This document shows positions 1,877 through 47,549 of a stretch of DNA of 51,468 bases, one piece after another. The stretch comes from a bacterium. GTDB lineage: Bacteria; Patescibacteriota; Minisyncoccia; Minisyncoccales; RBG-13-42-11. Every line of letters starts with the position of its first letter. Position 1 is the first letter of the stretch. The DNA is taken from positions 1 through 51,468 of the forward strand of contig JAUSLA010000015.1 of assembly GCA_030646565.1 (NCBI GenBank). The letters run 5' to 3'. A program made the position numbers and the translations under genes. The notes under the pieces were generated by a model, which saw only the letters and a list, made by a program, of their open reading frames with translations, did not search any database and was not told where the DNA came from.

Positions 1877-1936
1877 GTCGAAGAGATAAATCTCTTCTCC
1901 ACCTTCAATTATCTGCGTTCCGTAAAACGGGACTTG
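1877..1936 (-). repeat. Family A two-hairpin palindromic element (reverse orientation)
   Basis: The sequence is GTCGAAGAGATAAATCTCTTCTCCACCTTC...GCGTTCCGTAAAACGGGACTTG. It carries hairpin 2 (GAAGAGAT/ATCTCTTC) and hairpin 1 (GTTCCGT/ACGGGAC). Confidence 0.7.
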
Positions 1937-1938
1937 TC

Positions 1939-2004
1939 GGGCGATGAAGTTTCCCCCTTCGGGGTTTCCCTTCATCTTCGTTTTCGTCCCGCTTTGCGGG
2001 ACTC
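1939..2004 (-). repeat. Family A element (reverse orientation), tandem to the previous copy
   Basis: The sequence is GGCGATGAAGTTTCCCCCTTCGGGGTTTCCCTTCATCTTCGTTTTCGTCCCGCTTTGCGGGACTC. It accounts for the spurious N-terminal 22 aa of track ORF 1944..3389. Confidence 0.75.
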
Positions 2005-2009
2005 AACAA

Positions 2010-3389
2010 ATGACTCAATCTCAAGCGCTTTCAATACTTAAAACCGGCGCCAGTGTTTTTTTGACCGGCGAACCCGGGTCCGGCAAGACGCATACGGTAA
2101 ATCGCCTTGCGGCATACTTGCGCGAGCAAGGCATTGAGCCGGCGATTACGGCCTCAACTGGCATTGCCGCGACACACATAGGCGGGGTGACAATTCATTC
2201 TTGGGGCGGCATAGGAATTAAAACGAAGTTGGACAAATACTCTCTTAATAAAATTGCGTCAAGTAAACACATCGCAAGTCGCATCAGACGCGCCAAAATC
2301 CTTGTCATAGATGAAGTATCAATGCTTTCTGCCGAAACGCTATCTATGATTGACGCAGTTTGTCGCGAAATCAAGCAGTGTCCGGAGCCGTTCGGCGGAA
2401 TGCAGATAGTCCTTGTCGGCGATTTTTTTCAACTTCCACCGATTATAAGGACGAACGCTGAACACAGCGCGCAAGCTACATTCATTGAAGAATCATCTGC
2501 TCGTTTCGCTTACGATTCACCTGCTTGGGCACGAGCGAAGCCGGTCGTTTGCTACCTTACCGAGCAGTACCGGCAGGACGATTATAATTTTCTTTCCATA
2601 CTCTCGTCAATACGGCGCAACTCTTTTAGCGATAATCAATTACGCTATATTGAAACGCGGAAAATTGAACGCCACTCGGCGCCGGATGGCGCGCCGAAAC
2701 TTTTTTCGCATAATGTTGACGTGGATCGCGTCAACGATGAAATGCTTGCTAAGCTTCCGGGCGAGCCGCAAACCTTTGATATGTTTTCGCGAGGTCCGGA
2801 GGCGCTTATTACCGCGCTTAAAAAGGGTTGCCTTTCGCCAGAGACACTTGAACTTAAAATCGGCGCGGCGGTGATGTTTACAAAAAATAATCCAAAGAAA
2901 GGATTCGCGAACGGCACGCTCGGTAAAATTGATGGATTTGATAAAGAAAGCTGCTATCCAATGGTAAAAATGCGAAGCGGGAGAAGAATTGAAGTTGAGC
3001 CGATGGATTGGACGGTGGAAGAGAACGGCAAGATACGCGGTAAAATTACACAACTGCCGCTCCGTCTTGCTTGGGCGATTACGATACATAAAAGCCAGGG
3101 AATGAGCCTGGACGAGGCGGTAATGGATCTCTCGCAAGTCTTTGAATTCGGGCAGGGCTATGTCGCTCTCTCGCGCGTCAGGCGGCTTTCGGGCCTGCAT
3201 CTTCTTGGCTGGAACGAGCGCGCGTTTCAGGTGCATCCGGAAGTATCGGCAAAAGATGAATCATTCCTTGCGGCATCAAAAAAAGTTGAAATAGAATTTG
3301 CCAAAATCCCGTCCGCTGAACTTATAAAAATGCACAGAAATTTCATCACTGCCTGCCAAAGACTTGGCAACGGAGGGGGGCGTCGCTAA
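2010..3389 (+). CDS. PIF1/RecD-like superfamily 1 DNA helicase
   Basis: Helicase motifs are present: Walker A GEPGSGKT, TASTGIAA, LVIDEVSM, VLVGDFFQLPP, ITIHKSQGMSLD and YVALSRVR. I placed the start at ATG 2010 (MTQSQAL), immediately after the repeat. Confidence 0.8.
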   Translation: MTQSQALSILKTGASVFLTGEPGSGKTHTVNRLAAYLREQGIEPAITASTGIAATHIGGVTIHSWGGIGIKTKLDKYSLNKIASSKHIASRIRRAKILVIDEVSMLSAETLSMIDAVCREIKQCPEPFGGMQIVLVGDFFQLPPIIRTNAEHSAQATFIEESSARFAYDSPAWARAKPVVCYLTEQYRQDDYNFLSILSSIRRNSFSDNQLRYIETRKIERHSAPDGAPKLFSHNVDVDRVNDEMLAKLPGEPQTFDMFSRGPEALITALKKGCLSPETLELKIGAAVMFTKNNPKKGFANGTLGKIDGFDKESCYPMVKMRSGRRIEVEPMDWTVEENGKIRGKITQLPLRLAWAITIHKSQGMSLDEAVMDLSQVFEFGQGYVALSRVRRLSGLHLLGWNERAFQVHPEVSAKDESFLAASKKVEIEFAKIPSAELIKMHRNFITACQRLGNGGGRR

Positions 3390-3390
3390 T

Positions 3391-4095
3391 TTAAGACCCG
3401 TTCTTAAATTTTAGCATTCTGAAAAATTCGGCATATCTATATCCCTTCTTTTTTCCTGCAATTTTAGACCATGCCCTTACTTTATTTTCAATTGCTTTTA
3501 AATCAGCTATCTGGCTTGAATGTTGAGATAAGGCCTCTATTTTCTTATCAATAGTTTGAGTAATATCAATAAATTTATTCGGTTTTTCGGTGGCGAAAAA
3601 CCAAATTTCTTTTATTTGGTGCGGCTGATATCCTTGTTTTAAAAGTTCGGGAAAAAAAGAGGCGGAGCCGGCGGCTGGATATATTGAATCAAAAACCGCT
3701 TCCGCTGTTTGGCGATGATCCCGATGAAAACGATGAGGATTATCAAAGCTATGGTTAGCGGGATCAAAACTCAAAATTATCTCCGGTTTTACTTTTCTGA
3801 TTATCTGAACTATTTTTTTTCTCAGAAATTGAGTGTTTTCAATTTCTCCGTCTTTCAATCCCAAAAAGAAGACATTATTTACCCCCAAGACATTGGCCGC
3901 TCTTTTTTGTTCTGTTTGCCTAATTTTTGCTAATTTTTTTGAAGAAAATTTAACTTTATGGCTGCCCTTTGACCCATCACTAATAATCAAATAAAATACC
4001 TCGTTATTTTCTTGAGCCATCTTTGAAATTGTGCCGGCGCAGGTGAAATCTAAATCATCGGGATGGGCTGAAATTGCTAAAAATTTATTTTTCAT
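3391..4095 (-). CDS. PIG-L/LmbE family deacetylase
   Basis: The protein has FLAISAHPDDLDF and a HRDH motif. I chose ATG 4095 (MKNKFLAIS); the track start at 4119 would overlap iscU by 35 nt. Confidence 0.7.
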   Translation of the reverse strand: MKNKFLAISAHPDDLDFTCAGTISKMAQENNEVFYLIISDGSKGSHKVKFSSKKLAKIRQTEQKRAANVLGVNNVFFLGLKDGEIENTQFLRKKIVQIIRKVKPEIILSFDPANHSFDNPHRFHRDHRQTAEAVFDSIYPAAGSASFFPELLKQGYQPHQIKEIWFFATEKPNKFIDITQTIDKKIEALSQHSSQIADLKAIENKVRAWSKIAGKKKGYRYAEFFRMLKFKNGS

Positions 4096-4597
4096 ATTCT
4101 TTGTGCAGCTCTTCTTCAACTTTAAAGAGGCCTCCGTGGTGCTTTTTAAGCTCCTCTCCTATCTTTTCTGCAGCTTCATGCCTCTCTTCCAATTCTTTTG
4201 AAATAGGTCTGCCTATTTTTTTGAAATAATCATATATTGCTTCAGCCAAAGCATCCACGGCCAAAAGCGAGCAGTGAATTTTTATAAATGGCACTCCGCC
4301 AAATTTTTTAACCAAGTCGTCTTTTTTAATTTTCATTGCTTCTTCTATGGTTTTTCCCTTAACCATAGTAGTCAACAAGCTCGTATTGGCAATCGCAACA
4401 GTACAGCCATACGTCTCAAATTTAATATCATTGATTATCTCCTTTCCCTTTTTATCTTTTGCAACTTTGATATAAAGATACATAATATCTCCGCACCTCA
4501 AATTGCCGACTTTTCCTATTCCATCGGCATTTTTAATCTTTCCGACATTCTGGGGCTTCCTAAAATGTTTCATTACTTCTTTTGAATATAAGTCCAT
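4085..4597 (-). CDS. iscU: Fe-S cluster scaffold protein IscU/NifU-like
   Basis: The protein has the scaffold motifs GNLRCGDIM, FETYGCTVAIA and HCSLLA, and the gene lies directly downstream of iscS. Confidence 0.85.
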   Translation of the reverse strand: MDLYSKEVMKHFRKPQNVGKIKNADGIGKVGNLRCGDIMYLYIKVAKDKKGKEIINDIKFETYGCTVAIANTSLLTTMVKGKTIEEAMKIKKDDLVKKFGGVPFIKIHCSLLAVDALAEAIYDYFKKIGRPISKELEERHEAAEKIGEELKKHHGGLFKVEEELHKEYEK

Positions 4598-6386: not shown

Positions 6387-6491
6387 ATGAGTCCCGCAAA
6401 GTCGAAGAACTCTCGTTCTTCTCCACTCTTCGCTATGCTCGAGTGCGGAACGAAAATGAAGATGGGTCCCGCTCTGCTGGACTCATCGCTC
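6387..6491. repeat. Composite family A tract
   Basis: The tract reads ATGAGTCCCGCAAAGTCGAAGAACTCTCGTTCTTCTCCACTCTTCGCTATGCTCGAGTGCGGAACGAAAATGAAGATGGGTCCCGCTCTGCTGGACTCATCGCT. Track ORF 6387..6659 is repeat-derived. Confidence 0.7.
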
Positions 6492-6495
6492 CCAT

Positions 6496-7065
6496 CTAAA
6501 TTTCGTACTCTTTTATTCCCCCGGGAGGTATTTCAAAATTCACAATGTCCTCGTCTGATATTTTTTCAATATATTTTGCCAACGCCCTTAAGCTGTTGTG
6601 ACTGGCGACAACTAAAATATTCTTTCCCTGTTTCAAATCTTTTTCTATGTATTCTCTGAAAAACGGCACCACCCTGTTATAAACATCTTCCAAGCTTTCT
6701 CCCTTTGGGGGAGCTATATCCCAGCTTCTCCGCCATAGCCTTACTTGTTCCTCTCCGTATTTTTCTTTCATCTCGTCTTTATTAAGACCCTGTAATTCCC
6801 CATAATTTCTCTCATCTAAAGCCTTATTAATAATGATCGGCAGATCTTTTTTATTAAGATTTTCTAAAATTAAGCGAACTGTTTCTTTATTTCTGATTAA
6901 GGGCGAAGTATAAACTTTATCAATTTCAAAACCAGCCAGTTTTCCGGCAACTTCTTTTGCGCTTTCAATCCCCTCTTTACTCAAGGGAACATCAGTCCAG
7001 CCGGTGAATCGATTCTCTTTATTCCACTGCGACTCAAGATGCCTTAATAAAATTAATCTCGCCAT
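6496..7065 (-). CDS. gpmA: Phosphoglycerate mutase, 2,3-BPG-dependent type (short form)
   Basis: The protein starts LILLRHLESQWNKENRFTGWTDVPLS, and the gene is adjacent to eno. Confidence 0.75.
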   Translation of the reverse strand: MARLILLRHLESQWNKENRFTGWTDVPLSKEGIESAKEVAGKLAGFEIDKVYTSPLIRNKETVRLILENLNKKDLPIIINKALDERNYGELQGLNKDEMKEKYGEEQVRLWRRSWDIAPPKGESLEDVYNRVVPFFREYIEKDLKQGKNILVVASHNSLRALAKYIEKISDEDIVNFEIPPGGIKEYEI

Positions 7066-7069: not shown

Positions 7070-8350
7070 TTATTTTCCTAAGCTATCGACTAACTCTTTT
7101 TCTATTGCCAATAAGCGATTATATTTTGCCATTCTTTCTTTTTGAGTGGGAGCTCCAGCCTTAATAAAATTAGATCCAATACCAACCGCAAAGTCAGCGA
7201 TAAAATCGTCTTTTGTCTCGCCAGATCTATGTGAAACAATAATCTTCCAGCCGTATAATTTGGCTAATTTTGCGGCTGCGATCGCTTCCGAAATAGTTCC
7301 AATCTGATTTGGCTTTATAATTAACGCGTTGCAAATTTTTCTTTGATGAGCAAATTTTATTCTTTCCGGGTTCGTCACCGTTAAGTCATCGCCAACAACT
7401 AATATTTTTAATTTTAGATTTTTAACTTTAGACCTTAAAAACTTCCACCCTTTTACATCCTCTTCGGCAAAAGGATCTTCTATGGCCGTTATCGGATACT
7501 GCTGAAAAATCTCCAGATAAAAACTGAGGAGATCTTTCGAATTCAGAATACTCCCATCAAAATGATATTTTCCCTTTTTAAAAAAGGAATTAGCGGCCGC
7601 ATCAATGATAATTTCCGCCTTGCCCAAAAAACCCACTTTTTCGATCGCTTCCTTTGCTAAACTCAGCGCTTCTTTTGCATTTTTGACGGGAGGAATAAAA
7701 GCGCCTTCCATCCCCTGCTTGCTTCCCAATTGCCCGTATCTTTTTTTTAAAATTTTTCCCAGAGCAGAAAAAACTTTTTTTTCACGGTCAAAGCTTTCTC
7801 TAAAAGATTTTGTCTTGCAAGCAACCATTATCTCTTGGAGAGATAATTTCCCCTTGCCGTGCAACCCGCCTTCCAAAAGCAGAATGCAAGGCCTTGGTAG
7901 GGCTGGTTTTATGCCGGCAATTTTTGAAATCCATTTCCATAGGGGGAATTTTTTAGCTTTGGCTCCGGCTCTGGCAGTCGCTATTGATACTCCTAAAACA
8001 GCGTTTGCCCCCAAGCGGGATTTATTTTTCGTGCCGTCTAACTGAATCAAAGCTTCGTCAACCCTTTTTTGGTCTGATAAGTCTTCCTGTTTCAAAGACG
8101 GCGCGATAATTTTCTCTATATTTTCAATTACTTTTTTAACTCCCCTGCCGTCTTCATCTCTCAATTCTACCGCTTCATATTTTCCCGTAGAAACGCCCGA
8201 AGGCACCGATGCCAAAAATTTTCCAAAATCCGTTTCTAATTCCACCTCCACCGTCGGCATTCCTTTTGAGTCTAAAATTTCCCTGCCTCGTAGTAGAGAA
8301 ATTTTACTGCGGGGCCTGGCTGAAATTTTTTTTATTTTTAAATTATCCAT
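7070..8350 (-). CDS. eno: Enolase
   Basis: The protein has REILDSKGMPTVEVE, SVPSGVSTGKYEA and SHRSGETKDDFIADFAVG. Confidence 0.9.
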   Translation of the reverse strand: MDNLKIKKISARPRSKISLLRGREILDSKGMPTVEVELETDFGKFLASVPSGVSTGKYEAVELRDEDGRGVKKVIENIEKIIAPSLKQEDLSDQKRVDEALIQLDGTKNKSRLGANAVLGVSIATARAGAKAKKFPLWKWISKIAGIKPALPRPCILLLEGGLHGKGKLSLQEIMVACKTKSFRESFDREKKVFSALGKILKKRYGQLGSKQGMEGAFIPPVKNAKEALSLAKEAIEKVGFLGKAEIIIDAAANSFFKKGKYHFDGSILNSKDLLSFYLEIFQQYPITAIEDPFAEEDVKGWKFLRSKVKNLKLKILVVGDDLTVTNPERIKFAHQRKICNALIIKPNQIGTISEAIAAAKLAKLYGWKIIVSHRSGETKDDFIADFAVGIGSNFIKAGAPTQKERMAKYNRLLAIEKELVDSLGK

Positions 8351-9332
8351 TTAGCTTTTGAATGTAAGCGGCTGCGGAAATAGCGGCTTTGGCTCCCTCT
8401 CCTGCAGCGATAACTATCTGGTTATATAAGACATCGTCTACATCACCCGCGGCAAAAAGACCGGCGGTTTTAGTCATACAGGTTCTTGAGTCAACTACAA
8501 TTTCATCTCTCTTATTAAAATCAACCAGCCCTCTGACAAAAGAAGTGGCCGGCTGATAACCAATTTCAACAAAAACGCCTTCCACCGAAAGGTTGATTGT
8601 TTTTTTTGTTTTTCTTTCCTGATAACTTAACGATTCTACAAATTGATCGCCTTGAATTTTTTGCGCAGAAACATTAGTTATTGTTTCAACCTTGCCGCTT
8701 TTTTTAACTAATCCTTGATTTTCAGCGTCGGCTCCAACTTGCGGATTATATTCCAAAATATAAATTTTTTTGGCTATTTTACTTAGAAAAATGGCTGCTT
8801 CAAAACCGGCGTTTCCTCCGCCAACAATTGCCACTGTTTTGTCAAAAAACAAAGGGCCGTCGCATGTGACGCAATAACTCACTCCCTTTCCTAAAAATTC
8901 TTTTTCTCCGGGAACTTCCAAGCGCCTGGGATCAGCTCCCGAAGCAACAATGATTGCTTTTGACTGAAATCGCTGTTTGCTTTTGGTTAAAACCGAGAAA
9001 TTCCTCCCAATTTTTTTTATTTCTTTAGCCTCGTCTCTCTCAATTTCAATTTTCTGTTTTCTTAATTGTTTCTCGAATTTCTGGGTTAGTTCCATGCCGG
9101 ATACTTCTTCAAAACCGGGATAATTTTCAATAACCACTGCTTTTTCTGTTATGTACCCGCCAAAACTTTTAGTTATTAATAACGTATTCAGTCCTTGTCT
9201 TGCTGCGTAAATTCCAGCCGTAATTCCGGCCGGCCCTCCGCCAATAATTATTAAATCATAAACCGAGTCCCGCGAAGCGGGACGAAGGTGGAGAAGAGGA
9301 CGCAGTTCTCTTCGACTCGCTAAGTTACTCAT
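8343..9332 (-). CDS. trxB: Thioredoxin-disulfide reductase
   Basis: The protein has DLIIIGGGPAG, the redox-active CVTCDG, VGGGNAG and FAAGDV. The first ~21 aa are encoded by a family A element. Confidence 0.85.
   Translation of the reverse strand: MSNLASRRELRPLLHLRPASRDSVYDLIIIGGGPAGITAGIYAARQGLNTLLITKSFGGYITEKAVVIENYPGFEEVSGMELTQKFEKQLRKQKIEIERDEAKEIKKIGRNFSVLTKSKQRFQSKAIIVASGADPRRLEVPGEKEFLGKGVSYCVTCDGPLFFDKTVAIVGGGNAGFEAAIFLSKIAKKIYILEYNPQVGADAENQGLVKKSGKVETITNVSAQKIQGDQFVESLSYQERKTKKTINLSVEGVFVEIGYQPATSFVRGLVDFNKRDEIVVDSRTCMTKTAGLFAAGDVDDVLYNQIVIAAGEGAKAAISAAAYIQKLNG
9262..9321 (+). repeat. Family A element inside the trxB 5' coding region
   Basis: The sequence is ACCGAGTCCCGCGAAGCGGGACGAAGGTGGAGAAGAGGACGCAGTTCTCTTCGACTCGCT. 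Confidence 0.85.
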
Positions 9333-15749: not shown

Positions 15750-15950
15750 CCTGCGTCCCGTAAAGCGGGGCGAAGACGATGCGAAGAGATAAATCTCTTA
15801 TCAAGTCCCGCTTTGCGGGACGCAGATGGAAAAGAAGGAAGAAACCTTCTTTGACTCTTAATCTTCGCTCGGTTCTACCTCGCTCAATAGATGAAGCAAC
15901 ATTTCATCGCCTAGGCGGGGCGATGAAGCTATTGCTTCATCTTCCCTTCA
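15750..15950. repeat. Element-only tract of about 4 tandem family A units
   Basis: The tract contains GCGTCCCGTAAAGCGGGGCG, AAGAGATAAATCTCTT, GTCCCGCTTTGCGGGAC, GATGAAGCAACATTTCATCGCCTA and GGCGATGAAGCTATTGCTTCATC. Track ORF 15779..16012 is repeat-derived. Confidence 0.75.
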
Positions 15951-15961
15951 CTTTCAGTAAT

Positions 15962-16294: not shown

Positions 16295-16296
16295 AT

Positions 16297-16349: not shown

Positions 16350-16398
16350 AATCTTATTATATGCGTTTTCAAACTATGCTGTCAAATATAAGTATTGT

Positions 16399-18224: not shown

Positions 18225-18225
18225 A

Positions 18226-18285: not shown

Positions 18286-18301
18286 TTTTTATGTAATAAA
18301 A

Positions 18302-33164: not shown

Positions 33165-33221
33165 AAATCCCGCTTTTTATTTCTTAATAAATTAGATAGA
33201 ATAAATCCAGTGGAAAATTTA

Positions 33222-37026: not shown

Positions 37027-37030
37027 CGGT

Positions 37031-37084
37031 CAAAGAGGACTTTGTCCTCTTTTCCACCTTCGTCCCGTAAAACGGGACTCGGTT
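37031..37084 (-). repeat. Family A element filling the M16-perM spacer
   Basis: The sequence is CAAAGAGGACTTTGTCCTCTTTTCCACCTTCGTCCCGTAAAACGGGACTCGGTT. Confidence 0.85.
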
Positions 37085-37085
37085 T

Positions 37086-38851: not shown

Positions 38852-39284
38852 TAGTGACTGCAATAGTGAGGGCTTGGCTGATAATTTTCCAGAAGAGGGG
38901 AATTTTTTTATTTCTGAAAGAATGCGTTTTTATATGGTGAAATGCGCGATGGATTTTAAGCAGTTTGTTTTCCGGGAATACAAATGCCAGAAAAGCCAAG
39001 CCATCCGGCAAAATCGCGGTAATGCCGGCCAAAAGAGCAATTAAAGGGTTTTTAGCCAAAACAAGAATCAATAAAACGCCGGAGGAAAAATCAAGAAAAA
39101 TTTTGAAGAAATCAAAAAAGGAGTGGCGCCATTTTCCCTCCCCAATGTTTTTTATGGAATATTCTGAATGGGGCAAGAAATCCAAAAGATAATGCGAAAA
39201 CAAAGCCAAAAAAATGGCTATGGGGACAGATTTTATTTCCTCGGCAATGGCGGCTCCCACCAGTAAATGAGAAACGAGAATCAT
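38832..39284 (-). CDS. Membrane-bound metal-dependent hydrolase-like protein (YdjM/DUF457-like)
   Basis: The protein starts MILVSHLLVGAA, contains HYLLDFLPH and has several transmembrane helices. I placed the start at ATG 39284. The longer track N-terminus (MKKRTQFSSPS) is repeat-encoded. Confidence 0.55.
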   Translation of the reverse strand: MILVSHLLVGAAIAEEIKSVPIAIFLALFSHYLLDFLPHSEYSIKNIGEGKWRHSFFDFFKIFLDFSSGVLLILVLAKNPLIALLAGITAILPDGLAFLAFVFPENKLLKIHRAFHHIKTHSFRNKKIPLFWKIISQALTIAVTIIFLLK

Positions 39285-39286
39285 AG

Positions 39287-39343
39287 AGGGCGAAGAGAAC
39301 TGCGTTCTCTTCTTCACCTTCGTCCCGCCTTGCGAGACTCGGT
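39287..39343 (-). repeat. Family A element
   Basis: The sequence is AGGGCGAAGAGAACTGCGTTCTCTTCTTCACCTTCGTCCCGCCTTGCGAGACTCGGT. Confidence 0.85.
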
Positions 39344-39398
39344 AAATTAAGGTAAATTATGATAAAGTGAAAATGTATTTTCCATTATACCACACACT

Positions 39399-40907
39399 AT
39401 GAAAAATAAATTTTATATTACAACCACTCTTCCTTATGTAAACGCAGAGCCCCATATCGGTTTTTCTTTAGAAATTGTTCAGGCCGATGTTATTGCCAGA
39501 TATCAGAGGGCTTTGGGCAAAGATGTTTTTTTTAACACCGGAACCGACGAACACGGGCTGAAAATTTACCGCAAAGCATTAGAAGAAAATAAAAACCCCC
39601 AAGATTACGTTGACGAATACGCCGCAAAATACGAGTGCCTCAAAAGGGCTTTGAATTTAAGCTACACCAATTTTATCCGCACCACCGACGCCCATCACGT
39701 TTTAGCTGCCCAGAAATTTTGGATACGTTGTCTGAAAAACGGAGATATCTATAAAAAAAACTATAAAATCAAATACTGCGTTGGCTGCGAACTGGAAAAA
39801 ACCGATTCAGAATTAGCAAAGGGAAAATGTCCCATTCATCCTAATCTGTCCTTAGAGCAAATAGAGGAGGAGAATTATTTTTTTAGATTTTCCAAATACC
39901 GACAGCCACTCCTTGATTTTTACAAGAAATACCCTGACTTTGTAATACCGGTGTCCAGATTTGCTGAAGTGAAAAGTTTTATTAGACAAGGGCTTCGGGA
40001 TTTTAGCGTTTCGCGACTTAAAGAAAAAATGCCTTGGGGTGTTCCGGTTCCAGGAGACGATTCTCAAGTTTTTTTTGTTTGGTTTGACGCTTTGATCAAT
40101 TATATTTCCGCTTTGGGTTGGCCCGAGCAAAAGAAGAATTTTCGGGCATATTGGGGAAATAAAAGAAACCCTAACGCCCTTCAAGTTGCCGGTAAAGACA
40201 ATTTGCGCCAGCAATCAGCTATATGGCAAGCCATGCTTATGTCTGCCGGCCTTCCTAATTCAAGGAAAATTATTATACACGGATTTATTACCGTTGCCGG
40301 CCAGAAAATGTCCAAAAGTTTGGGAAATGTGGTTTCTCCCTTTGAATTGGTCAAAAAATACGGGACTGACCCTGTAAGATATTTTCTTTTGCGGGAAATT
40401 CCACCGACCGAGGACGGCGATTTTACCTATGAGAAGTTTGAATCAAGATATAATTCTGATTTGGCCAATGGATTAGGAAATTTGGCGGCGAGAGTAATAA
40501 CGCTTGCAAAAATTTCTAATACCGAGCTTCCACTTGTGGAAGCGAAGGTGAAGAAGAGAACGGAGTTCTCTTCGCCTTTCAAATTTCTAATTTCCAAACA
40601 AATCCAAAATCCAAAATTCAAAACAACAATAAACAAAACTTGGGGAAAATATCACAAGGCTTTAGGCGAATTTAAGTTTAATGAGGCGTTAGTTGCAGTT
40701 TGGAATTTAATTGGTTTTTGCGACCGTTACATTGAAAAAGAAAAACCATGGGAAAAAAGCCAAAAACAAAAAGAAGTTATTGGCGATTTATTATTAGCTA
40801 TTAATGAAATAGCGAAACTTTTAGAGCCATTTTTGCCCGAGACATCAGAAAAAATCTTTCAGCAATTAAAAAATAAAAAAAGCAAATCTCTCTTTCCCAG
40901 AATCTAA
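39399..40907 (+). CDS. metG: Methionine--tRNA ligase
   Basis: The protein has TTLPYVNAEPHIGF (HIGH region) and KMSKSLGN. It carries one in-frame family A insertion. Confidence 0.9.
   Translation: MKNKFYITTTLPYVNAEPHIGFSLEIVQADVIARYQRALGKDVFFNTGTDEHGLKIYRKALEENKNPQDYVDEYAAKYECLKRALNLSYTNFIRTTDAHHVLAAQKFWIRCLKNGDIYKKNYKIKYCVGCELEKTDSELAKGKCPIHPNLSLEQIEEENYFFRFSKYRQPLLDFYKKYPDFVIPVSRFAEVKSFIRQGLRDFSVSRLKEKMPWGVPVPGDDSQVFFVWFDALINYISALGWPEQKKNFRAYWGNKRNPNALQVAGKDNLRQQSAIWQAMLMSAGLPNSRKIIIHGFITVAGQKMSKSLGNVVSPFELVKKYGTDPVRYFLLREIPPTEDGDFTYEKFESRYNSDLANGLGNLAARVITLAKISNTELPLVEAKVKKRTEFSSPFKFLISKQIQNPKFKTTINKTWGKYHKALGEFKFNEALVAVWNLIGFCDRYIEKEKPWEKSQKQKEVIGDLLLAINEIAKLLEPFLPETSEKIFQQLKNKKSKSLFPRI
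40521..40577 (+). repeat. Family A element in frame in metG (19 codons)
   Basis: ACCGAGCTTCCACTTGTGGAAGCGAAGGTGAAGAAGAGAACGGAGTTCTCTTCGCCT is translated as TELPLVEAKVKKRTEFSSP. Confidence 0.85.
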
Positions 40908-40910
40908 AAT

Positions 40911-41840
40911 ATGTTTACAGCTTTTGTCATTATTGTTGGGTTGGTGATTTTTGAGATAATCAGCAGCATTGATAACGCTATTATTAACGCTCATATTCTA
41001 AAAACAATGAGCGTTAAATGGCGGAAAATTTTTCTCTTCTGGGGTATTTTTACCGCGGTTTTTCTCGTCAGGGGCCTTCTTCCTTTAGCAATTGTTTGGC
41101 TGTCGGTTCCTGAAATTGGTTTTTGGGGAGTATTCCAATCAATGTTTAAGAGTTCGCCGGAAATTGCCCAGACAATAGAAGCAAGAAAGGGCATAATTTT
41201 GATTGGAGCCGGCGTTTTTCTTTTATTGATTTATCTTCATTGGCTATTTTTGGAAAAAAAAGACCCATTTTTTGTTTCTGACAAGTTAATAAAGCCGAAT
41301 TATGGGGTCTGGTTTTTTGCTTTTGCCGCCATAATTTTAGTCTCCCTTTTGTATCTGGCAAGAAATTCTTACCAACTAATGTTATCTGCCGCTATAGGTT
41401 ATGCCGTGTTTTTTATTATGTATGGTTTTCGCGAGCAAGCGGCCAAAGAAGAGGCAAGACTGGAGGGTGGCCAGTCACATTTGAGTAATTTTTCAAAATT
41501 AATGTTTCTTGAAGTATTGGACACTTCTTTCAGTTTTGACGGAGTCATTGGCGCTTTTGCTTTTACCACTGCAATCCCTTTAATTTTTTTGGGAAACGGA
41601 ATAGGAGCTTTGGTTGTAAGACAATTGACTATCAGCGGCATAGAGCGGGTGGAAAAATACAAATGGCTGAAAAACGGGGCAATGACTTCAATAGGAATTT
41701 TAGGCGTTTTTATTATTGCCAAAAGTTTCGGCGTCCATATTCCAGAATACTTGCCCACCTTAACGACTATCGGGCTTGTAGGTTTAACCTTTTGGAGGTC
41801 TCATCAACTTTTAAAAAAGAATAACCAAGGTGCTAATTGA
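40911..41840 (+). CDS. Integral membrane protein (DUF475/TerC-like)
   Basis: The protein is polytopic and contains SSIDNAIINA. Confidence 0.55.
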   Translation: MFTAFVIIVGLVIFEIISSIDNAIINAHILKTMSVKWRKIFLFWGIFTAVFLVRGLLPLAIVWLSVPEIGFWGVFQSMFKSSPEIAQTIEARKGIILIGAGVFLLLIYLHWLFLEKKDPFFVSDKLIKPNYGVWFFAFAAIILVSLLYLARNSYQLMLSAAIGYAVFFIMYGFREQAAKEEARLEGGQSHLSNFSKLMFLEVLDTSFSFDGVIGAFAFTTAIPLIFLGNGIGALVVRQLTISGIERVEKYKWLKNGAMTSIGILGVFIIAKSFGVHIPEYLPTLTTIGLVGLTFWRSHQLLKKNNQGAN

Positions 41841-41916
41841 CACCCATTCCCATTTGAACCCCGAAGGAGAAAACTTCGTTTTCCCTACGGGGCAAGTTTC
41901 AACGCTTTTATGTTAA
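41830..41916 (+). other. 28-codon upstream ORF: a duplicated tatD N-terminus interrupted by a family B element
   Basis: The GTG start overlaps the upstream gene's stop. The ORF encodes VLIDTHSHLN, then element-derived codons, and its stop TAA (41914-41916) overlaps codons 2-3 of tatD. Confidence 0.55.
41859..41896 (+). repeat. Family B hairpin element (38 nt)
   Basis: The sequence is CCCCGAAGGAGAAAACTTCGTTTTCCCTACGGGGCAAG. Confidence 0.75.
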
Positions 41917-42818
41917 TTGACACTCACTCGCATTTAAATTTCAACGCCTACAAAAATGATGCAGATGAAGTGATAAAAAGAGCACTAGACAATGATATCT
42001 GGATGCTCAATGTCGGCTCGCAATTTTCCACCTCAAAAAGGGCGGTTGAAATAGCCGAAAAATATCCAAAAGGAGTGTATGCCGCCGTCGGCCTTCACCC
42101 AATACATTTAACTGAAGGAATTTTTAAAACAAAAATTGATACAGAAGAAATTGAATTTAAAAAAGCTGAAGAAGATTTTTATTACGAAAAATATAAAGAA
42201 TTAGCCCGATCTAAAAAAGTTGTCGCTATCGGCGAGGTTGGTTTAGATTATTATTATCGGCCAAAAACAAAAACAAAACTTGAACAGTTCAAAAACAAAC
42301 AAAAAGAAGCGCTTTTGGCGCAGTTGGCTTTAGCCAAAGAGCTGAATTTGCCAGTAATTTTCCATTGCCGTTCAGCACATAAGGATTTGATAGAAATCCT
42401 CAACTATAAAACAAGAACTACAAACTATAAACCGAATGGAGTAGTTCATTGTTTTACCGGAAATTTGGAAGAGGCAAAACAATATCTGGAATTGGGGCTT
42501 TATCTTGGTTTGAACGGGATAATTTTTAAGCTGGAGGTCGCTGAGACTTCGTCTCATCTCTCATCTCGTGCGGCTTCGCCGCACTCGGTTTTAGACGAAG
42601 TTATCAAAAATATTCCTTTAAATAGAATTTTAGTTGAAACAGATTGCCCCTATTTGACGCCGCCACCTTTTGAAGGACGAAATGAACCTTTGTATATTAA
42701 ATCAGTTGTCCAGCGAATAGCTGAAATTAAAAATATGAACTACGAGGAAATAGCTAAAATTACTACTGAAAATGCCAAAAAATTATTTACCGAGTTCCGT
42801 GAAGCGGAACGAAGGTGA
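41910..42818 (+). CDS. tatD: TatD family metal-dependent hydrolase
   Basis: The protein has MLIDTHSHLNF, GEVGLDYY, FHCR, HCFTG and VETDCPYLTP. It contains one internal family A insert, and a second copy supplies the last 9 codons and the stop. Confidence 0.9.
   Translation: MLIDTHSHLNFNAYKNDADEVIKRALDNDIWMLNVGSQFSTSKRAVEIAEKYPKGVYAAVGLHPIHLTEGIFKTKIDTEEIEFKKAEEDFYYEKYKELARSKKVVAIGEVGLDYYYRPKTKTKLEQFKNKQKEALLAQLALAKELNLPVIFHCRSAHKDLIEILNYKTRTTNYKPNGVVHCFTGNLEEAKQYLELGLYLGLNGIIFKLEVAETSSHLSSRAASPHSVLDEVIKNIPLNRILVETDCPYLTPPPFEGRNEPLYIKSVVQRIAEIKNMNYEEIAKITTENAKKLFTEFREAERR
42534..42590 (-). repeat. Family A element in frame in tatD (19 codons)
   Basis: GAGGTCGCTGAGACTTCGTCTCATCTCTCATCTCGTGCGGCTTCGCCGCACTCGGTT is translated as EVAETSSHLSSRAASPHSV. 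Confidence 0.8.
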
Positions 42819-42844
42819 AGAAGAGGACGCAGTCCTCTTCGCCT
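42789..42844 (+). repeat. Family A element (near-consensus) spanning the tatD stop
   Basis: The sequence is ACCGAGTTCCGTGAAGCGGAACGAAGGTGAAGAAGAGGACGCAGTCCTCTTCGCCT. The stop TGA at 42816-42818 lies in the linker. Confidence 0.9.
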
Positions 42845-42867
42845 TTCAAAAATTTAAATCAAAATTT

Positions 42868-43704
42868 ATGCCAAAAGTCGCAATTATCGGAGGAAGCGGG
42901 GTTTACGACTCCGGAATTTTTAAAAAGGAAAAAGAGGTTAGAATAAAAACTCCGTTCGGCTATCCTTCCTCGCCAATTGAAATCGGCGATTTTCTGGGCC
43001 CCGAAGGAGACGCTTCGCGACCCTACGGGGCAAGCCAAAAAATCGCTTTTTTGGCAAGGCACGGAAAGAATCATCAATTTCCTCCGCATAAAGTTCCTCA
43101 AAAAGCCAACCTTTGGGCTTTGAAAAAACTAGGCGTTGAAAGAATAATTGGAATTTGCGCTGTCGGCTCTTTAAAGAAAAGTTTTAAGCCGGGAGACATT
43201 GTGATTTGCGATCAGTTTATAGATTTTACCAAAAAACGGGAATACACTTTTTATGATGGTTCGACGAGCTCACCACTTAGCAGTAAGGCGATACACATTT
43301 CTTTGGCCGACCCTTTTTGTCCTGAATTAAGAAAGTTATTTTTTAAAGAAGCGAAAAAGCTAAAAATCCCAGTTCATCAAAAAGGGACTTATCTTTGCAT
43401 CGAAGGGCCGAGATTTTCAACTCGGGCGGAATCAAAATTCTTCAGAAATTTTGCCGATATTATTGGAATGACTTTAATTCCTGAAGCGGTTTTGGCCAGA
43501 GAATTGGAGATTTGTTATTTATCTTTAGCTATGGTAACCGATTACGATGTTTGGCAAGACAGCCCTGTAAGCGCGGAAGAAGTGATAAAGACAATGAAAG
43601 ACAACTTGGAGAAAATCAAAAAATTATTAAAAAATACCATTCCTCAAATTAAAATTCAAAGAAATTGTCCTTGCAAAACAGCTCTCAAAAACGCCAAAAT
43701 TTAA
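42868..43704 (+). CDS. mtnP: S-methyl-5'-thioadenosine phosphorylase
   Basis: The protein has MPKVAIIGGSGVYD, FLARHG, GPRFSTRAE and GMTLIPEAVLARE. I placed the start at ATG 42868. Confidence 0.85.
   Translation: MPKVAIIGGSGVYDSGIFKKEKEVRIKTPFGYPSSPIEIGDFLGPEGDASRPYGASQKIAFLARHGKNHQFPPHKVPQKANLWALKKLGVERIIGICAVGSLKKSFKPGDIVICDQFIDFTKKREYTFYDGSTSSPLSSKAIHISLADPFCPELRKLFFKEAKKLKIPVHQKGTYLCIEGPRFSTRAESKFFRNFADIIGMTLIPEAVLARELEICYLSLAMVTDYDVWQDSPVSAEEVIKTMKDNLEKIKKLLKNTIPQIKIQRNCPCKTALKNAKI
42999..43034 (+). repeat. Family B hairpin element in frame in MTAP (36 nt)
   Basis: CCCCGAAGGAGACGCTTCGCGACCCTACGGGGCAAG encodes most of the GPEGDASRPYGAS segment. It lies just before the conserved FLARHG. 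Confidence 0.75.
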
Positions 43705-43725
43705 TTGGTTTAGCGAATGTTAGAT

Positions 43726-43782
43726 AGCCGAGCCGCAGGCGACGGGTGGAGAAGAACACGAATGTGTTCTTCGACTAGCCGA
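43726..43782 (+). repeat. Family A element (short hairpin 1 variant)
   Basis: The sequence is AGCCGAGCCGCAGGCGACGGGTGGAGAAGAACACGAATGTGTTCTTCGACTAGCCGA. Confidence 0.75.
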
Positions 43783-44781: not shown

Positions 44782-44784
44782 AAT

Positions 44785-44942
44785 ACCGAGTTCGCCAAAG
44801 GTGGACGAAGGTGACTCAAAGAAGATAAATCTTCTTTTCCACCTGCGTCCCACTTTGTGGGACTTGGTAGATGAGGAAGTAGTCCTCATCGCTTACTTGA
44901 GCGAAGCGAAGAGTGAAGATGAGGAAGTAGTCCTCATCGCTT
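44785..44942. repeat. Element-only tract of about 3 family A units upstream of leuS
   Basis: The tract reads ACCGAGTTCGCCAAAGGTGGACGAAGGTGACTCAAAGAAGATAAATCTTCTTTTCCACCTGCGTCCCACTTTGTGGGACTTGGTAGATGAGGAAGTAGTCCTCATCGCTTA...GAAGATGAGGAAGTAGTCCTCATCGCTTA. Confidence 0.8.
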
Positions 44943-44976
44943 AGACAAAATCGGGTTTTTGGGATATGATATTTTT

Positions 44977-45063
44977 ATGAATTATAATCCGCAGGTAATT
45001 GAAAAAAAGTGGCCCCGTAAAGATTTTTCTATGGAAAAATCAACGGGGCAAGCAGAAACATGA
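44977..45063 (+). other. 28-codon upstream ORF: a leuS-like N-terminus interrupted by a family B element
   Basis: The ATG at 44977 opens an ORF encoding MNYNPQVIEKKW followed by element-derived codons. Its stop TGA (45061-45063) overlaps the leuS ATG (45060-45062) as ATGA. Confidence 0.55.
45013..45052 (+). repeat. Family B hairpin element (40 nt)
   Basis: The sequence is CCCCGTAAAGATTTTTCTATGGAAAAATCAACGGGGCAAG. Confidence 0.7.
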
Positions 45064-47549
45064 AATATGAACCGCAGAAAATAGAACCTAAATGGCAAAA
45101 GTATTGGGAGGAACAGGGATATTATCTGGCAGAGGATTTTTCAAAAAAGCCAAAAAAGTATATTTTATTTGAATTTCCTTATCCTTCGGGGGAAGGTCTT
45201 CACGTTGGCCACGCTAGGAGTTATGTTGCCATAGACGCCCTTTCCAGAAAAAAAAGAATGGAAGGATATAATGTTTTATTCCCAATTGGCTGGGATGCTT
45301 TTGGTTTGCCGACAGAGAATTACGCCATCAAAACCGGTATTCATCCCCAAAAAGCAACCGAGCAAAACATCGCTAATTTTAAAAGACAAATGAAAAACTT
45401 GGGCCTTTCTTTTGATTGGTCAAGAGAAATTAATACCACCGACCAAAAATACTACAAATGGACTCAATGGATTTTTCTTAAACTCTACGAGAGGGACTTA
45501 GCTTACCAAGCGGAAATTCCGGTGAATTGGTGTCCTTCCTGTAAAATTGGCTTGGCTAATGAAGAAGTTGTTGGCGCAGGATGCGAGAGATGTGGGACTC
45601 CTGTTGAAAAAAAGATTTTAAAGCAGTGGATGCTTAAAATTACCTCGTACGCAGACAGATTAATAGACGACTTGGAGATGGTTGATTATCCAGAGAGAGT
45701 GAAGTCCCAGCAAAAAAACTGGATCGGTAAAAGCTATGGCGTAGAGATTGATTTTAAGACAACAGGGGCGGAAGAAATAGGCGAAGAGGACAAGTCCTCT
45801 TCTTCACCTTCGTCCCGCAAGCGGGACTCGGTCATTAAGGTTTTTACCACCAGAGCAGACACTCTTTTTGGAGTAACGGCAGTTGTTTTAGCTCCCGAAC
45901 ACGAAATTATTTCAAAATTAAAATCTCGAATTTTAAATCTGAAAGAGGTGCAAGATTACATTAATCAAGCGGTAAAGAGGAGTGAATTTGAGAGGACAGA
46001 ATTGGCGAAAGAAAAAACGGGAGTTGAGTTAAAAGGAGTTAAAGCGATAAATCCGGCTAACGGAGAAGAGGTGCCGGTCTGGGTAGGAGATTATGTGGTG
46101 GCTGTTTATGGCGGCGGAGCGGTTATGGTAGTTCCTGCTCACGATTTTAGGGATTACGATTTTGCCAAAAAATACGGCCTGGAGATAAGAGAAGTTGTTT
46201 CGGTTTGCCCGCCGAAGCCCGAAGGGCGAAGGTGGGGCGGAGATATTTCGAGGGAAGCTTTTGTTGGCTACGGCGTTTTAATTAACTCGGGCCAATTTAA
46301 TGGTTTAACTTCTGAAAAAGCAATTGAAGAAATCACCGCCTGGCTTGAAGTAAGGAATGAAAGTAAAAAAACAATAAAATACAAATTAAGGGACTGGGTT
46401 TTTTCCAGGCAGCATTACTGGGGAGAGCCGATTCCAATTATTCATTGTCCAAAATGCGGGGCAGTGCCGGTGTTAGAAAAAGATTTACCGATAGAGCTTC
46501 CTTATGTTGAAAAATATCAGCCAACAGGAACGGGTGAATCGCCTTTGGCAGTGATTTCAGAATGGGTTAACGTTGCTTGTCCTGAATGCGGCAGCCCGGC
46601 TAAAAGGGAAACAGACACTATGCCCAACTGGGCTGGTTCTAACTGGTATTATATAAGATATTGCGACCCGGATAATAGCAAAGAAATAGCCGATTCTCAA
46701 AAATTGAAATATTGGCTTCCGGTTGACTGGTATAACGGCGGAATGGAGCACACCACTTTGCATCTTTTATATTCTCGTTTTATATATAAATTTCTTTTTG
46801 ATATCAGGGTTGTTTTTCAGCCAGAGCCCTACAAAAAAAGAACTTCACACGGCATGGTCTTGGCCCAAGACGGCAGAAAAATGTCAAAGTCTTTCGGAAA
46901 TGTTATTAATCCTGACGATATTGTCCGGCAATATGGAGCCGACACTCTGCGACTTTATGAAATGTTTATGGGGCCTTTCGGGGAAACAATTGCCTGGAAC
47001 AGCCAAGGATTGAAAGGGTGCCATCGTTTTTTGGAAAAAGTTTGGAGATTAGCTTTAGAATCATCTGCAGAAAATAAAACCAGCGCTAATATATTAAGGG
47101 CCCTGCACAAATTGAATAAAAAAGTGGAAGAGGACTTAGAGGAAACAAAATTTAACACGATAATTGCATCTTTTATGGAGTTTGTTAACCTGGCCCTGGA
47201 GAATGAAAAAGAAATTAGTAGAGAGGCAATTGAGCGATTCTTAATTTTACTTTCTCCTTTTGCTCCCCATATTTCAGAAGAGTTGTGGGAGAAGATTGGG
47301 AAAAATGGCAGCATTCAAAAGCAAGAATGGCCAAAGTACGATCCGTTATTAGTTAAAGAAGAGATTGTTAATTTGATTATTCAGATCAATGGAAAAGTCC
47401 GGGACAAGATTGAGGTTGACCCGGCTCTTTCCGAAGAAAAAGCCAAAGAGATTGCGTTTGCGCGAGAAAAAATTAAAAAATGGATAGATGGCAAGGAAAT
47501 AAAAAAAATAATTTTCATTAAAGATAAGATCATAAATATCGTCGTATAG
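45060..47549 (+). CDS. leuS: Leucine--tRNA ligase
   Basis: The protein has EFPYPSGEGLHVGHARSY (HIGH region), KMSKSFGN, and the editing domain with VFTTRADT. Confidence 0.95.
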   Translation: MKYEPQKIEPKWQKYWEEQGYYLAEDFSKKPKKYILFEFPYPSGEGLHVGHARSYVAIDALSRKKRMEGYNVLFPIGWDAFGLPTENYAIKTGIHPQKATEQNIANFKRQMKNLGLSFDWSREINTTDQKYYKWTQWIFLKLYERDLAYQAEIPVNWCPSCKIGLANEEVVGAGCERCGTPVEKKILKQWMLKITSYADRLIDDLEMVDYPERVKSQQKNWIGKSYGVEIDFKTTGAEEIGEEDKSSSSPSSRKRDSVIKVFTTRADTLFGVTAVVLAPEHEIISKLKSRILNLKEVQDYINQAVKRSEFERTELAKEKTGVELKGVKAINPANGEEVPVWVGDYVVAVYGGGAVMVVPAHDFRDYDFAKKYGLEIREVVSVCPPKPEGRRWGGDISREAFVGYGVLINSGQFNGLTSEKAIEEITAWLEVRNESKKTIKYKLRDWVFSRQHYWGEPIPIIHCPKCGAVPVLEKDLPIELPYVEKYQPTGTGESPLAVISEWVNVACPECGSPAKRETDTMPNWAGSNWYYIRYCDPDNSKEIADSQKLKYWLPVDWYNGGMEHTTLHLLYSRFIYKFLFDIRVVFQPEPYKKRTSHGMVLAQDGRKMSKSFGNVINPDDIVRQYGADTLRLYEMFMGPFGETIAWNSQGLKGCHRFLEKVWRLALESSAENKTSANILRALHKLNKKVEEDLEETKFNTIIASFMEFVNLALENEKEISREAIERFLILLSPFAPHISEELWEKIGKNGSIQKQEWPKYDPLLVKEEIVNLIIQINGKVRDKIEVDPALSEEKAKEIAFAREKIKKWIDGKEIKKIIFIKDKIINIVV
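45779..45832 (-). repeat. Family A element in frame in leuS (18 codons)
   Basis: AGGCGAAGAGGACAAGTCCTCTTCTTCACCTTCGTCCCGCAAGCGGGACTCGGT is translated as GEEDKSSSSPSSRKRDSV. Confidence 0.85.

Follow-up and report, generated by a model that had tools for sequence, protein, structure and literature searches.

The DNA considered here (the window: 51.5 kb, positions 1 to 51,468 of contig JAUSLA010000015.1 in GenBank assembly GCA_030646565.1) comes from a bacterium of the candidate phyla radiation (CPR) and carries a dense family of short palindromic repeats, in the spacers between genes as well as in frame inside essential genes. Integration of these repeats, here called units, has a fixed orientation and takes place 3 nt downstream of a T-C/T-A motif; it leaves no target-site duplication, and the units have no terminal inverted repeats. 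Probably, if with some reserve, the family is one of very small non-autonomous mobile DNA elements of Parcubacteria/Nealsonbacteria-type CPR that are mobilised in trans as folded single-stranded DNA. An earlier note on this DNA, made from its letters, had proposed mobile insertions resembling the Rickettsia palindromic elements (RPE); that proposal is supported by lineage-specific insertions, by sites that are empty in the closest relative found (locus L112) and by a copy number above chance. The window has a G+C content of ~39%, is gene-dense and holds mostly housekeeping genes (trxB, eno, ftsZ, typA, infC-rpmI-rplT, argS, ileS, recO, proS, metG, tatD, leuS and glmS). In protein searches its closest relatives are Parcubacteria/Candidatus Nealsonbacteria, that is, members of the CPR, and no relative closer than ~81% was found.

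The repeat is far too frequent to be a chance pattern: seed patterns for hairpin 1 and for hairpin 2 each match the window 13 times, against 0.03 matches expected. A covariance model (R1) was built from 14 aligned full copies and run over the window with filters off (E<0.01). It gives 37 matches at 31 separate loci, all between 1872 and 45835, which together span 2093 nt or 4.07% of the window and bear out the earlier count of at least 30 loci made by eye. All the stem variants quoted at that time are present, including GTGCGGC/GCCGCAC (42532-42592), CTTCCAC/GTGGAAG (40518), GTCCCAT/ATGGGAC (18222 and 33098), GATGAAGC/GCTTCATC (15914 and 18298) and GAAGAACA/TGTTCTTC (19742 and 43724). So are units in both orientations, half units (for example 16396-16439 and 10832-10876), a tandem tract of overlapping units (44782-44946) and nested copies (29353-29404 within 29317-29425, and 44810-44871 within 44782-44898). 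The copies could have been assembly artefacts, but an independent Logan assembly holds metG with its insert, and the family occurs in many independent metagenome-assembled genomes (MAGs) and in a closed 639-kb genome. The Logan contig in question (SRR13727527, contig L001) corresponds to window positions 39297-42810 and ends at both sides inside units (39284-39346 and 42786-42848).

Each unit has the layout ACCGAG-[hairpin 1]-CGAAGGTGAAG-[hairpin 2]-CGCC(T), with modal lengths of 57 and 54 nt. There is also a third helix, formed by ACC and the GGT of CGAAGGT, which closes hairpin 1 with an internal GA/GAA loop in between; it too covaries, with ATC/GAT, AGC/GCT, CCC/GGG and CTC/GAG variants. 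Some copies depart from the layout: one sub-form has a long nested hairpin 2 (1935-2010 and 19606-19685), a short form B has hairpin 1 cut to a few bases (at 10697, 10785, 11956, 19742, 43724 and 6396), and another lacks hairpin 1 altogether. Covariation was measured on 83 distinct copies from the window and ~25 other CPR genomes, with 500 shuffles and slid alignments as controls. Stem cells are paired in 97.9% of cases, compared with 82.1% in shuffles and no more than 59% in slid controls. Compensatory double changes occur in 14 of the 17 stem pairs, and cells with double changes number 246 against 66 expected; none of the 500 shuffles reaches any of these measures. Fitting the alignment to the model works in favour of the structure, yet the differences from the controls are wide. 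The earlier view that palindromy and not primary sequence is maintained thus holds in its first half, since the stems covary in all helices. Its second half does not hold: the unpaired segments ACCGAG, CGAAGGTGAAG and CGCC are near-invariant across species. Sequence and structure are both constrained in the unit, not palindromy alone.

Other properties of the unit concern its ends, its strand and its length. First, the ends are not inverted repeats of each other (5′ ACCGAG against AGGCGA, the reverse complement of the 3′ end); hairpin 1 begins ~6 nt from the 5′ end and hairpin 2 stops ~5 nt from the 3′ end. Second, the computed fold of units as single-stranded DNA has an energy of -13 to -16 kcal/mol (z-scores -3.7 to -4.7) and is strand-specific: there are 45 C-GNA-G triloops on the unit strand and a single one on its complement, and 21 G-T pairs versus 12 A-C pairs. 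A C-GNA-G-type loop is known from exceptionally stable DNA mini-hairpins such as d(GCGAAGC). The orientation of units relative to genes is mixed, with 16 antisense and 13 sense among intragenic copies and 13 antisense and 5 sense among copies in spacers between co-directional genes, and a single RNA-level role is therefore unlikely. Taken together, the loop asymmetry and the transcription-independent orientation point to selection on one folded DNA strand. Third, 57% of unit lengths are divisible by three (33% expected), with peaks at 57 and 54 nt, and a unit offers a mean of 3.9 stop-free reading frames out of six, compared with 2.6 in shuffles.

The target rule emerges from the 5′ flanks of 59 distinct units, drawn from all genomes. 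T stands at -6 in 58 of them, position -5 is C in 46 and T in 11, position -4 is A in 48 and G in 8, and positions -3 to -1 are unconstrained. Among the units of the window alone the rule is weaker than in the all-genome set: TCA stands at -6 to -4 in 7 of 40, a ~12-fold enrichment over the background of 1.5%. In leuS and metG the TCA motif falls in ancestral codons, so the motif is target sequence and not a part of the element. A reading of the motif as a stop or start codon was considered and set aside, as its reverse complement TGA/TAA does not end long open reading frames (ORFs). The 3′ end of the unit, T-C-G-C-C-T, repeats the target motif, and through this mimicry units come to land behind and inside one another, giving rise to tandem arrays and nested copies. 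Head-to-tail units with a 57-nt period form an array at locus L067, and nested copies have used as their targets CCTCATC, which is the 3′ arm of hairpin 2, and the TCG found in a right end. As for duplications, the longest words shared by the two flanks of a unit have nearly the same distribution as in mismatched controls.

Comparison with relatives shows the same sites filled and empty. L112 (GCA_030649805.1), with 79-83% protein identity, is syntenic with the window from 20.4 to 38.8 kb, and it has two units in 17.8 kb, one of them decayed, where the window has ~7. Its empty sites are the junction between the phosphatase (HisPhos) gene and ileS, both positions within ileS, and the M16/AI-2E junction; at these sites the flanking genes overlap in their stop and start codons. 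The corresponding spacer units of the window are a full unit between the phosphatase gene and ileS (27185-27250, minus strand, 60.8 bits with the covariance model, as for all scores below unless stated) and a 57-nt unit between the M16 stop and the AI-2E start (37024-37086, minus, 76.6 bits; junction CTCGGT-TT-ATG), a site that is occupied in CP179888. The full unit in the DUF11/proS spacer (33098-33165, plus, 55.9 bits), in which a hairpin-1-type stem replaces hairpin 2, has an empty counterpart in L013. In the infC/rpmI spacer the window has a full unit (23247-23309, plus, 85.3 bits), and the orthologous L112 copy has decayed to 35.7 bits, its pairing kept despite many changes. Just upstream of the NUDIX gene both genomes are occupied (window 20464-20526, plus, 77.3 bits; L112 767-832): the two copies share hairpin 2 and have wholly different hairpins 1, that of L112 matching the window unit at 27185-27250 instead. 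This swap suggests replacement, conversion or re-insertion at the site.

A second pair of loci, L114 and L115, is 77-92% identical in nucleotides and differs by clean insertions: a unit in frame within a POR gene, another between leuS and glmS and, in the EPSP/CofD spacer, one single and one double unit. Exact junctions can be read from these comparisons (TCATAA^ in L112; TCAAAG^[unit] and TCAAAAA^[101 nt, two units]TATG between L114 and L115). Boundaries are clean in the filled/empty pairs, and in none of them is there a target duplication.

Insertions in coding sequence tell a similar story. In-frame, stop-free copies reported earlier for ileS (twice), leuS, metG, tatD, ftsZ and trxB were all recovered, and among orthologues of LeuRS, MetRS and IleRS the segments are missing or sit at other positions; the trxB case and the N-terminal ftsZ case stand in the ORF as called and depend on the choice of start codon. 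LeuRS has 829 residues in the window, against a modal length of 798 among 120 orthologues. A 54-nt insertion in the editing domain (GEEDKSSSSPSSRKRDSV; aa 240-258; 45775-45835, minus, 74.1 bits) is missing from the closest orthologue (75% identity), and other orthologues carry unit-derived peptides of 16-25 residues (19-residue inserts) near residues 240, 271, 298, 368 or 387. In MetRS, exactly 19 extra codons (TELPLVEAKVKKRTEFSSP; aa 378-396) lie between AAT and TTC, an exact 57-nt insertion in a disordered inter-domain loop (40518-40581, plus, 70.5 bits), and an orthologue runs straight through the insertion point as EISN|FKFS. An AlphaFold (AF2) model of MetRS has a mean pLDDT (predicted local distance difference test) of 88 and shows the insert as a coil between two helices, with values below 50 at 381-393.

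IleRS has two inserts, both missing from an 81%-identical orthologue. One is a 54-nt insertion at aa 261-281 (28031-28091, minus, 55.0 bits). The other, at aa ~690-724, is a composite (29317-29425, plus, 24.9 bits) in which the loop of hairpin 2 holds a second, oppositely oriented unit (29353-29404, minus, 11.9 bits), and it is 87-93% identical to copies in L029. TatD carries an insert at aa 208-228 (42532-42592, minus, 25.8 bits) that the solved Thermotoga maritima TatD (1j6o) lacks, and its last nine codons and TGA stop come from a full unit (42786-42848, plus, 83.2 bits). A second TatD segment of ~16 residues (aa ~66-82, window 42105-42155) is likewise missing from the solved T. maritima homologue and has no match to the unit model. 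In FtsZ, four units or half units (10697 minus, 10785 minus, 10832 plus and 10843 minus, within 10697-10895; 16-31 bits) lie in frame in the disordered C-terminal linker, past the core (78-381), and the reading frame runs on into the retained C-terminal peptide ETPAYLRRK. Three further units (11879 plus, 11956 plus and 11974 minus, within 11879-12029; 13.5-29.5 bits) supply ~45 residues of the K-rich N-terminal tail, which is much shorter in orthologues. Finally, a full unit in antisense (9259-9321, plus, 76.9 bits) makes up codons 4-25 of the trxB ORF, with the in-frame copy at N-terminal residues 5-24, and because the sole ATG is upstream of it, translation of the unit into an extension of the N-terminus seems likely.

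All the gene-internal insertions examined sit in loops, linkers or termini. Their survival in such places of essential proteins can be ascribed to lengths of 54 and 57 nt, which are multiples of three, and to frames that are mostly free of stops; these two properties would let coding insertions persist as peptides of 18-19 residues. Outside genes, some units fill precisely the gap from one stop codon to the start codon that follows. The LeuRS, MetRS and IleRS orthologues of CPR contain further families of short in-frame inserts at variable positions (10-mers of the GGSASGG type, KSKIKNQKSK tracts and 20-mers of the SFAKASASVKTSADKSGGKA type), which suggests that several further repeat families behave likewise.

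How might such units move? In the mechanism we favour, the element would be recognised as folded single-stranded DNA, and a hairpin-specific enzyme acting in trans would cut and join it. HUH endonucleases (IS200/IS605 TnpA, RAYT, or an IS91/Helitron-like Rep) are the best candidates, a proposal that derives from the set of features common to elements served by HUH enzymes (IS200/IS605, REP/RAYT, IS91/Helitron). Several findings weigh against mobilisation of this kind. Pfam scans of the window and of neighbouring ORFs gave no candidate for the mobilising enzyme, in line with the earlier statement that no transposase or RAYT-like gene is in the window (none in 40 main ORFs and 10 small or neighbouring ones), and a crude regular-expression search for HUH/Y1 motifs over 336 kb of CPR loci returned nothing. 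When 356 ORFs from unit-bearing loci were clustered in search of a recurrent neighbour, only syntenic housekeeping genes emerged. Copies are no more alike within genomes than between them (mean identity 0.70 and 0.69, respectively) and do not cluster by genome. With the origin inferred at ~19.7 kb, the small sample of units in the window (~21 against ~18) has no bias between leading and lagging strands, and three variable nucleotides separate the motif from the cut site, unlike in IS200/IS605.

Two individual sites add to these points. The leuS/glmS unit of L115 (12440-12600) has on either side a diverged copy of the final ~24 nt of leuS, where L114 (12430-12470) has a single copy of the leuS end and no unit. 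Simple cut-and-join does not predict this flanking duplication, which is compatible with a long duplication at insertion or with recombinational loss between repeats. At the M16/AI-2E junction, near-consensus copies are present in genomes with only 55-60% protein identity, yet the site is empty in L112; the shared occupancy implies that the junction is a hot spot for insertion from which units can be lost precisely, or else that resident copies are subject to selection or gene conversion. There could thus be a component of host function besides transposition. Membership of the family in the HUH-mobilised class is unproven, since the defining enzyme was not found and two of the features expected of the class are lacking or unclear.

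Host function can also be taken as the whole explanation. The units would then primarily be structured motifs of use to the host: they could serve as binding sites in RNA or DNA, stabilise an mRNA or mark where it is processed, terminate transcription or act as portable regions for translation initiation. Selection would maintain them locus by locus, and mobility would be incidental or long extinct. A near-invariant unpaired core across species whose proteins are 55-70% identical, together with copies that do not cluster by genome, would be expected of such motifs, as would the near-consensus copy at the same M16/AI-2E junction in distant genomes and the orthologous infC/rpmI copies that stay paired despite many changes. 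Gene context speaks for it too. Of 59 units, 16 are placed exactly 2 nt upstream of an ATG that opens an ORF of 60 or more codons on the opposite strand. The preference for antisense in co-directional spacers (13 versus 5) would bring the purine-rich arm of hairpin 1 to 7-12 nt before the ATG, where it may be exploited. The placement before ATG is what the target rule gives, TCAT being the reverse complement of ATGA, and it also results from there being hardly any other neutral space. Against host function as the main cause stand the intragenic copies, which are found antisense (16) as well as sense (13) and whose positions vary among orthologues, and the existence of tandem arrays and nested copies. 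The closest relative, moreover, works without the unit at sites where stop and start codons overlap, and its infC/rpmI copy is decaying (35.7 versus 85.3 bits). The loop asymmetry is of the DNA mini-hairpin type, and no Rfam family matches. We regard this explanation as unlikely overall, though some copies may have gained a secondary use as start-proximal or stop-supplying sequence.

Propagation without any dedicated enzyme is a still less likely source of the family. Here copies would arise by template switching or slippage at hairpins in replication or repair, and by gene conversion between copies. The failure to find a mobilising enzyme agrees with this, and the L115 unit between duplicated gene ends fits recombinational gain or loss; the same junction filled in distant genomes and hairpin 1 swapped at orthologous sites could reflect conversion. 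Exact boundaries, a specific target on one side only and a single orientation of integration are, however, hard to obtain without a sequence-specific protein.

SINE-like spread through an RNA intermediate, with target-primed reverse transcription by a CPR reverse transcriptase, is very unlikely. Reverse transcriptases are common in CPR genomes, but Pfam scans found none in the window. What speaks for this route are mainly repeats beside the units. Directly on their 3′ side, three sense in-frame units have tracts of a simple heptamer, (TTCAAAN)n or (TCCAAAA)n (window 40582-40625; L032, downstream of 6459-6522; L114 14548-14565) against a background of 0.1%. Comparison of L114 with L115 shows that the tract arrived with the unit, and each heptamer includes the TCANNN target motif. 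One insertion is flanked by a long duplication (that of L115), and flanking direct repeats of at least 9 nt accompany 12% of copies but 0.9% of mismatched controls. Yet most copies have no flanking duplication at all, the clean filled/empty pairs have none, and the conserved feature is a target at the 5′ junction, not a tail. The long flanking repeats, of 9-19 nt, were considered as duplications and rejected: most are pre-existing simple tracts (metG, L032 and L097) or belong to a separate palindromic module (L087, L096 and L005). The 11-nt repeat in metG was likewise rejected as a target duplication, as it would make the insertion 71 nt long and shift the frame. The module, TTCAA-TGAATC-TTC-GATTCA-TTT, lies directly 5′ of units in L087 (~7700-7730), L096 (~1520-1545) and L005 (~4440-4465), flanks one L087 unit on both sides, and may be a further component of a modular set of repeats. 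Lastly, derivation of the units as miniature inverted-repeat elements from insertion sequences with a classical DDE transposase can be dismissed as highly improbable: small size, abundance, both orientations and a place at gene boundaries would suit such elements, but the ends (ACCGAG against AGGCGA) are not inverted repeats, there is no target duplication of fixed length, and the target motif is on one side only.

Transposition of folded single-stranded DNA, the preferred reading, has a wider form that we put forward only tentatively and consider rather doubtful as a whole. CPR bacteria, with genomes from ~0.6 Mb upward, might keep an active, structure-guided transposition of single-stranded DNA of a new type. 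Its three-helix element of 54 or 57 nt would be cut at TCRNNN^ and would have evolved towards lengths divisible by three and stop-poor frames, so that coding sequence could be colonised too; essential proteins would be reshaped (loops of aminoacyl-tRNA synthetases, tails of FtsZ) and start-proximal or stop sequence supplied in the process. The enzyme would be single-copy and host-resident, either RAYT-like or entirely new.

Among known systems the nearest in kind are the RPE, which Ogata and co-workers reportedly described in 2000 in frame in unrelated genes. Like them, the units are in-frame palindromes in unrelated housekeeping genes and are missing from orthologues (leuS, metG, ileS twice, tatD and ftsZ). 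Like them, they add a conserved peptide at tolerated positions, and the mobilising enzyme has been identified in neither case. RPE too are palindromic repeats dispersed through a reduced genome, in spacers and in frame in housekeeping genes (PMC10969869). There are differences: RPE are ~100-150 bp long, form ten families and belong to Alphaproteobacteria, whereas the unit has 54-57 nt and belongs to CPR/Parcubacteria. The two are not known to share a sequence motif. Unlike RPE, the unit combines a defined fold of three helices with a T-C/T-A target on one side only, 3 nt away from the junction, and it forms tandem arrays and nested copies. By analogy, then, this is in kind the RPE phenomenon.

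In mechanism the unit looks, again by analogy, most like palindromic elements derived from REP/RAYT (REP: repetitive extragenic palindrome) or IS200/IS605. REP/REPIN repeats, mobilised by RAYT, and IS200/IS605 elements have no terminal inverted repeats or target duplications, and they have subterminal hairpins and a strand-specific fold. REP sequences show compensatory changes, and IS608-type elements show a replication-strand bias. The unit has in common with these elements that it lacks inverted ends and a target duplication and has subterminal hairpins near both ends; that stem structure counts over stem sequence, with short conserved single-stranded motifs beside the hairpins and a strand-specific fold; and that it integrates next to a short specific sequence. 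It departs from REP in lacking the hallmark GTAG-hairpin, and from the LE/RE of IS608 and from REPIN in that its two hairpins are not copies of each other and form no inverted doublet. Its right end TCGCCT resembles the target motif on its 5′ side, but three variable bases stand between motif and junction, whereas in IS608 (TTAC^) and in IS200/IS605 generally the tetra- or pentanucleotide abuts the cut. Nor, in contrast to IS200/IS605 or REP, was a Y1 transposase or RAYT found in the window or by the crude search of 336 kb of related loci, and the units of the window lack the replication-strand bias of IS608.

Other comparisons are more distant. Double-hairpin elements of fungal mitochondrial DNA were reportedly described by Paquin and co-workers in 2000. 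These elements (with the fungal GC clusters) and the hairpin repeats of sponge mitochondria are, like the units, mobile, tens of bases long and built of two hairpins, and they sit in spacers and in coding or rRNA genes without destroying them. The mitochondrial double-hairpin elements are organellar, however, with unrelated sequences and no reported one-sided T-C-A rule, and no homology is implied. The attC sites of integrons, 57-141 nt long, are recognised as a folded single strand, and their structure is conserved over their sequence. The unit is at the lower end of this size range and its structure is conserved as well. Unlike attC, it has no R''/R' boxes (RYYYAAC...GTTRRRY), its two ends do not pair with each other, and its 5′ end pairs with the unit's middle; an integrase is lacking, and units do not bound gene cassettes but lie within genes or in the spacers of ordinary operons. 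Units differ from CRISPR or TIGR arrays in that copies are dispersed, arrays are head-to-tail without spacers, and no cas or tas gene is in the window. The unit is therefore best placed among the small palindromic non-autonomous mobile repeats that tolerate translation.

The family extends well beyond the window. GTDB, with one genome per species, was scanned for the pattern ACCGAG-N13-18-CGAAGGTGAAGAAG, and the matched loci were re-scored with the covariance model, which confirms at least 88 units; among the matches listed, all the strong ones are in CPR loci. These loci belong, again among the matches listed, to Ca. Nealsonbacteria, the Parcubacteria group, Minisyncoccales, Ca. Paceibacter and bins labelled Saccharibacteria. 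The non-CPR loci among them (~60, chance matches to the pattern, from genomes high in GC) include one marginal match to the model. The scan of related genomes that the earlier note had called for thus finds the family in many CPR MAGs. One exact-pattern scan of viral contigs revealed no true unit; a single match there scored only 17.5 bits with the model and was set aside as chance. A BLAST search with one unit against phage and plasmid collections gave no match. With Rfam 15 at gathering thresholds only a tmRNA passes in the whole window, and under permissive settings the best matches of a representative unit (42760-42870) are chance hairpins (E>0.7). A hammerhead-like reading of GA-[helix]-GAA was rejected as well: there is no CUGANGA core and no ribozyme model scores. 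Literature searches turned up no earlier report of repeats like these from Nealsonbacteria, Parcubacteria, Patescibacteria or the CPR at large, and the family appears to be undescribed to date. In L097, two units, one each, lie in a perfect 236-nt duplicate (3440-3675 and 4292-4527, 852 nt apart) beside ORFs without a Pfam match.

CPR/Patescibacteria genomes are among the smallest and most gene-dense and are usually described as repeat-poor. In the window, 4% of the sequence is one family of 57-nt elements, and that family is common to many Parcubacteria species. Its units account for length variation and low-complexity inserts in core proteins of CPR such as aminoacyl-tRNA synthetases and FtsZ, and the inserts derived from them affect orthologue alignments, phylogenomic markers and structure prediction. 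Units also break assemblies of CPR MAGs at predictable points and extend or truncate ORF calls at gene ends. The integration rule gives a concrete biochemical hypothesis for the mobilising enzyme, and the contrast between unit-rich lineages and unit-poor ones with decayed copies offers a comparative handle for finding that enzyme in unculturable organisms. If the mobile reading is right, the family would be a second, independent case beside Rickettsia of selfish palindromes written into essential proteins.

The remaining units of the window lie mostly in spacers. The Rrf2/phosphatase spacer has a short B-form unit (6396-6446, minus, 21.0 bits) and a weak partial unit (6436-6495, plus, 12.7 bits). 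Around typA there are a full unit in the convergent HK/typA spacer (15797-15860, plus, 62.7 bits), a unit without hairpin 1 (15914-15961, minus, 17.4 bits), a full unit 2 nt upstream of the ATG that opens a 97-codon ORF on the other strand (16294-16353, plus, 69.9 bits), and the half unit at 16396-16439 (plus, 30.8 bits), which lacks hairpin 1 and abuts the typA stop codon. A full unit abuts the likely typA start codon (18222-18283, plus, 79.0 bits), followed by another without hairpin 1 (18298-18346, plus, 17.2 bits). Further along are a full unit upstream of metG (39284-39346, minus, 80.0 bits), a B-form unit downstream of the PNP gene (43724-43780, plus, 31.0 bits) and, upstream of leuS, the tract of four units at 44782-44946 (44782 plus; 44810 minus, nested in the first; 44844 plus; 44902 plus; 25-49 bits).

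Three neighbouring genes at 311-3389 are of a kind associated with mobile elements or defence. One is RhuM/TnsA-N-like, one has an NYN domain and one codes for a PIF1-like helicase, and no Rep/HUH domain was detected in them. Two units overlap the 5′ end of the helicase gene, a degenerate one in the NYN/PIF1 spacer (1872-1926, minus, 25.2 bits) and one with a long nested hairpin 2 overlapping the 5′ end of the ORF (1935-2010, minus, 51.6 bits). Helitron transposases include a Pif1-type helicase. The tmRNA gene (23826-24179, minus; 132.7 bits with Rfam) adjoins smpB, is free of units and, according to ARAGORN, encodes the tag peptide ANLFKQPVLAYA*. At ~19600-20000 the GC skew turns from negative to positive and gene orientation from the minus to the plus strand; the switch, at ~19.7 kb, looks like a putative replication origin, without dnaA in view. 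A cluster of units (19606-19973) sits at this switch together with the remnant of a PHP-domain ORF: a long-hairpin-2 variant (19606-19685, minus, 31.7 bits), a B-form unit (19742-19793, minus, 28.8 bits) and, within the remnant, which is homologous to the PHP gene of L112, a unit interrupted by another copy (19870-19973, plus, 39.1 bits).

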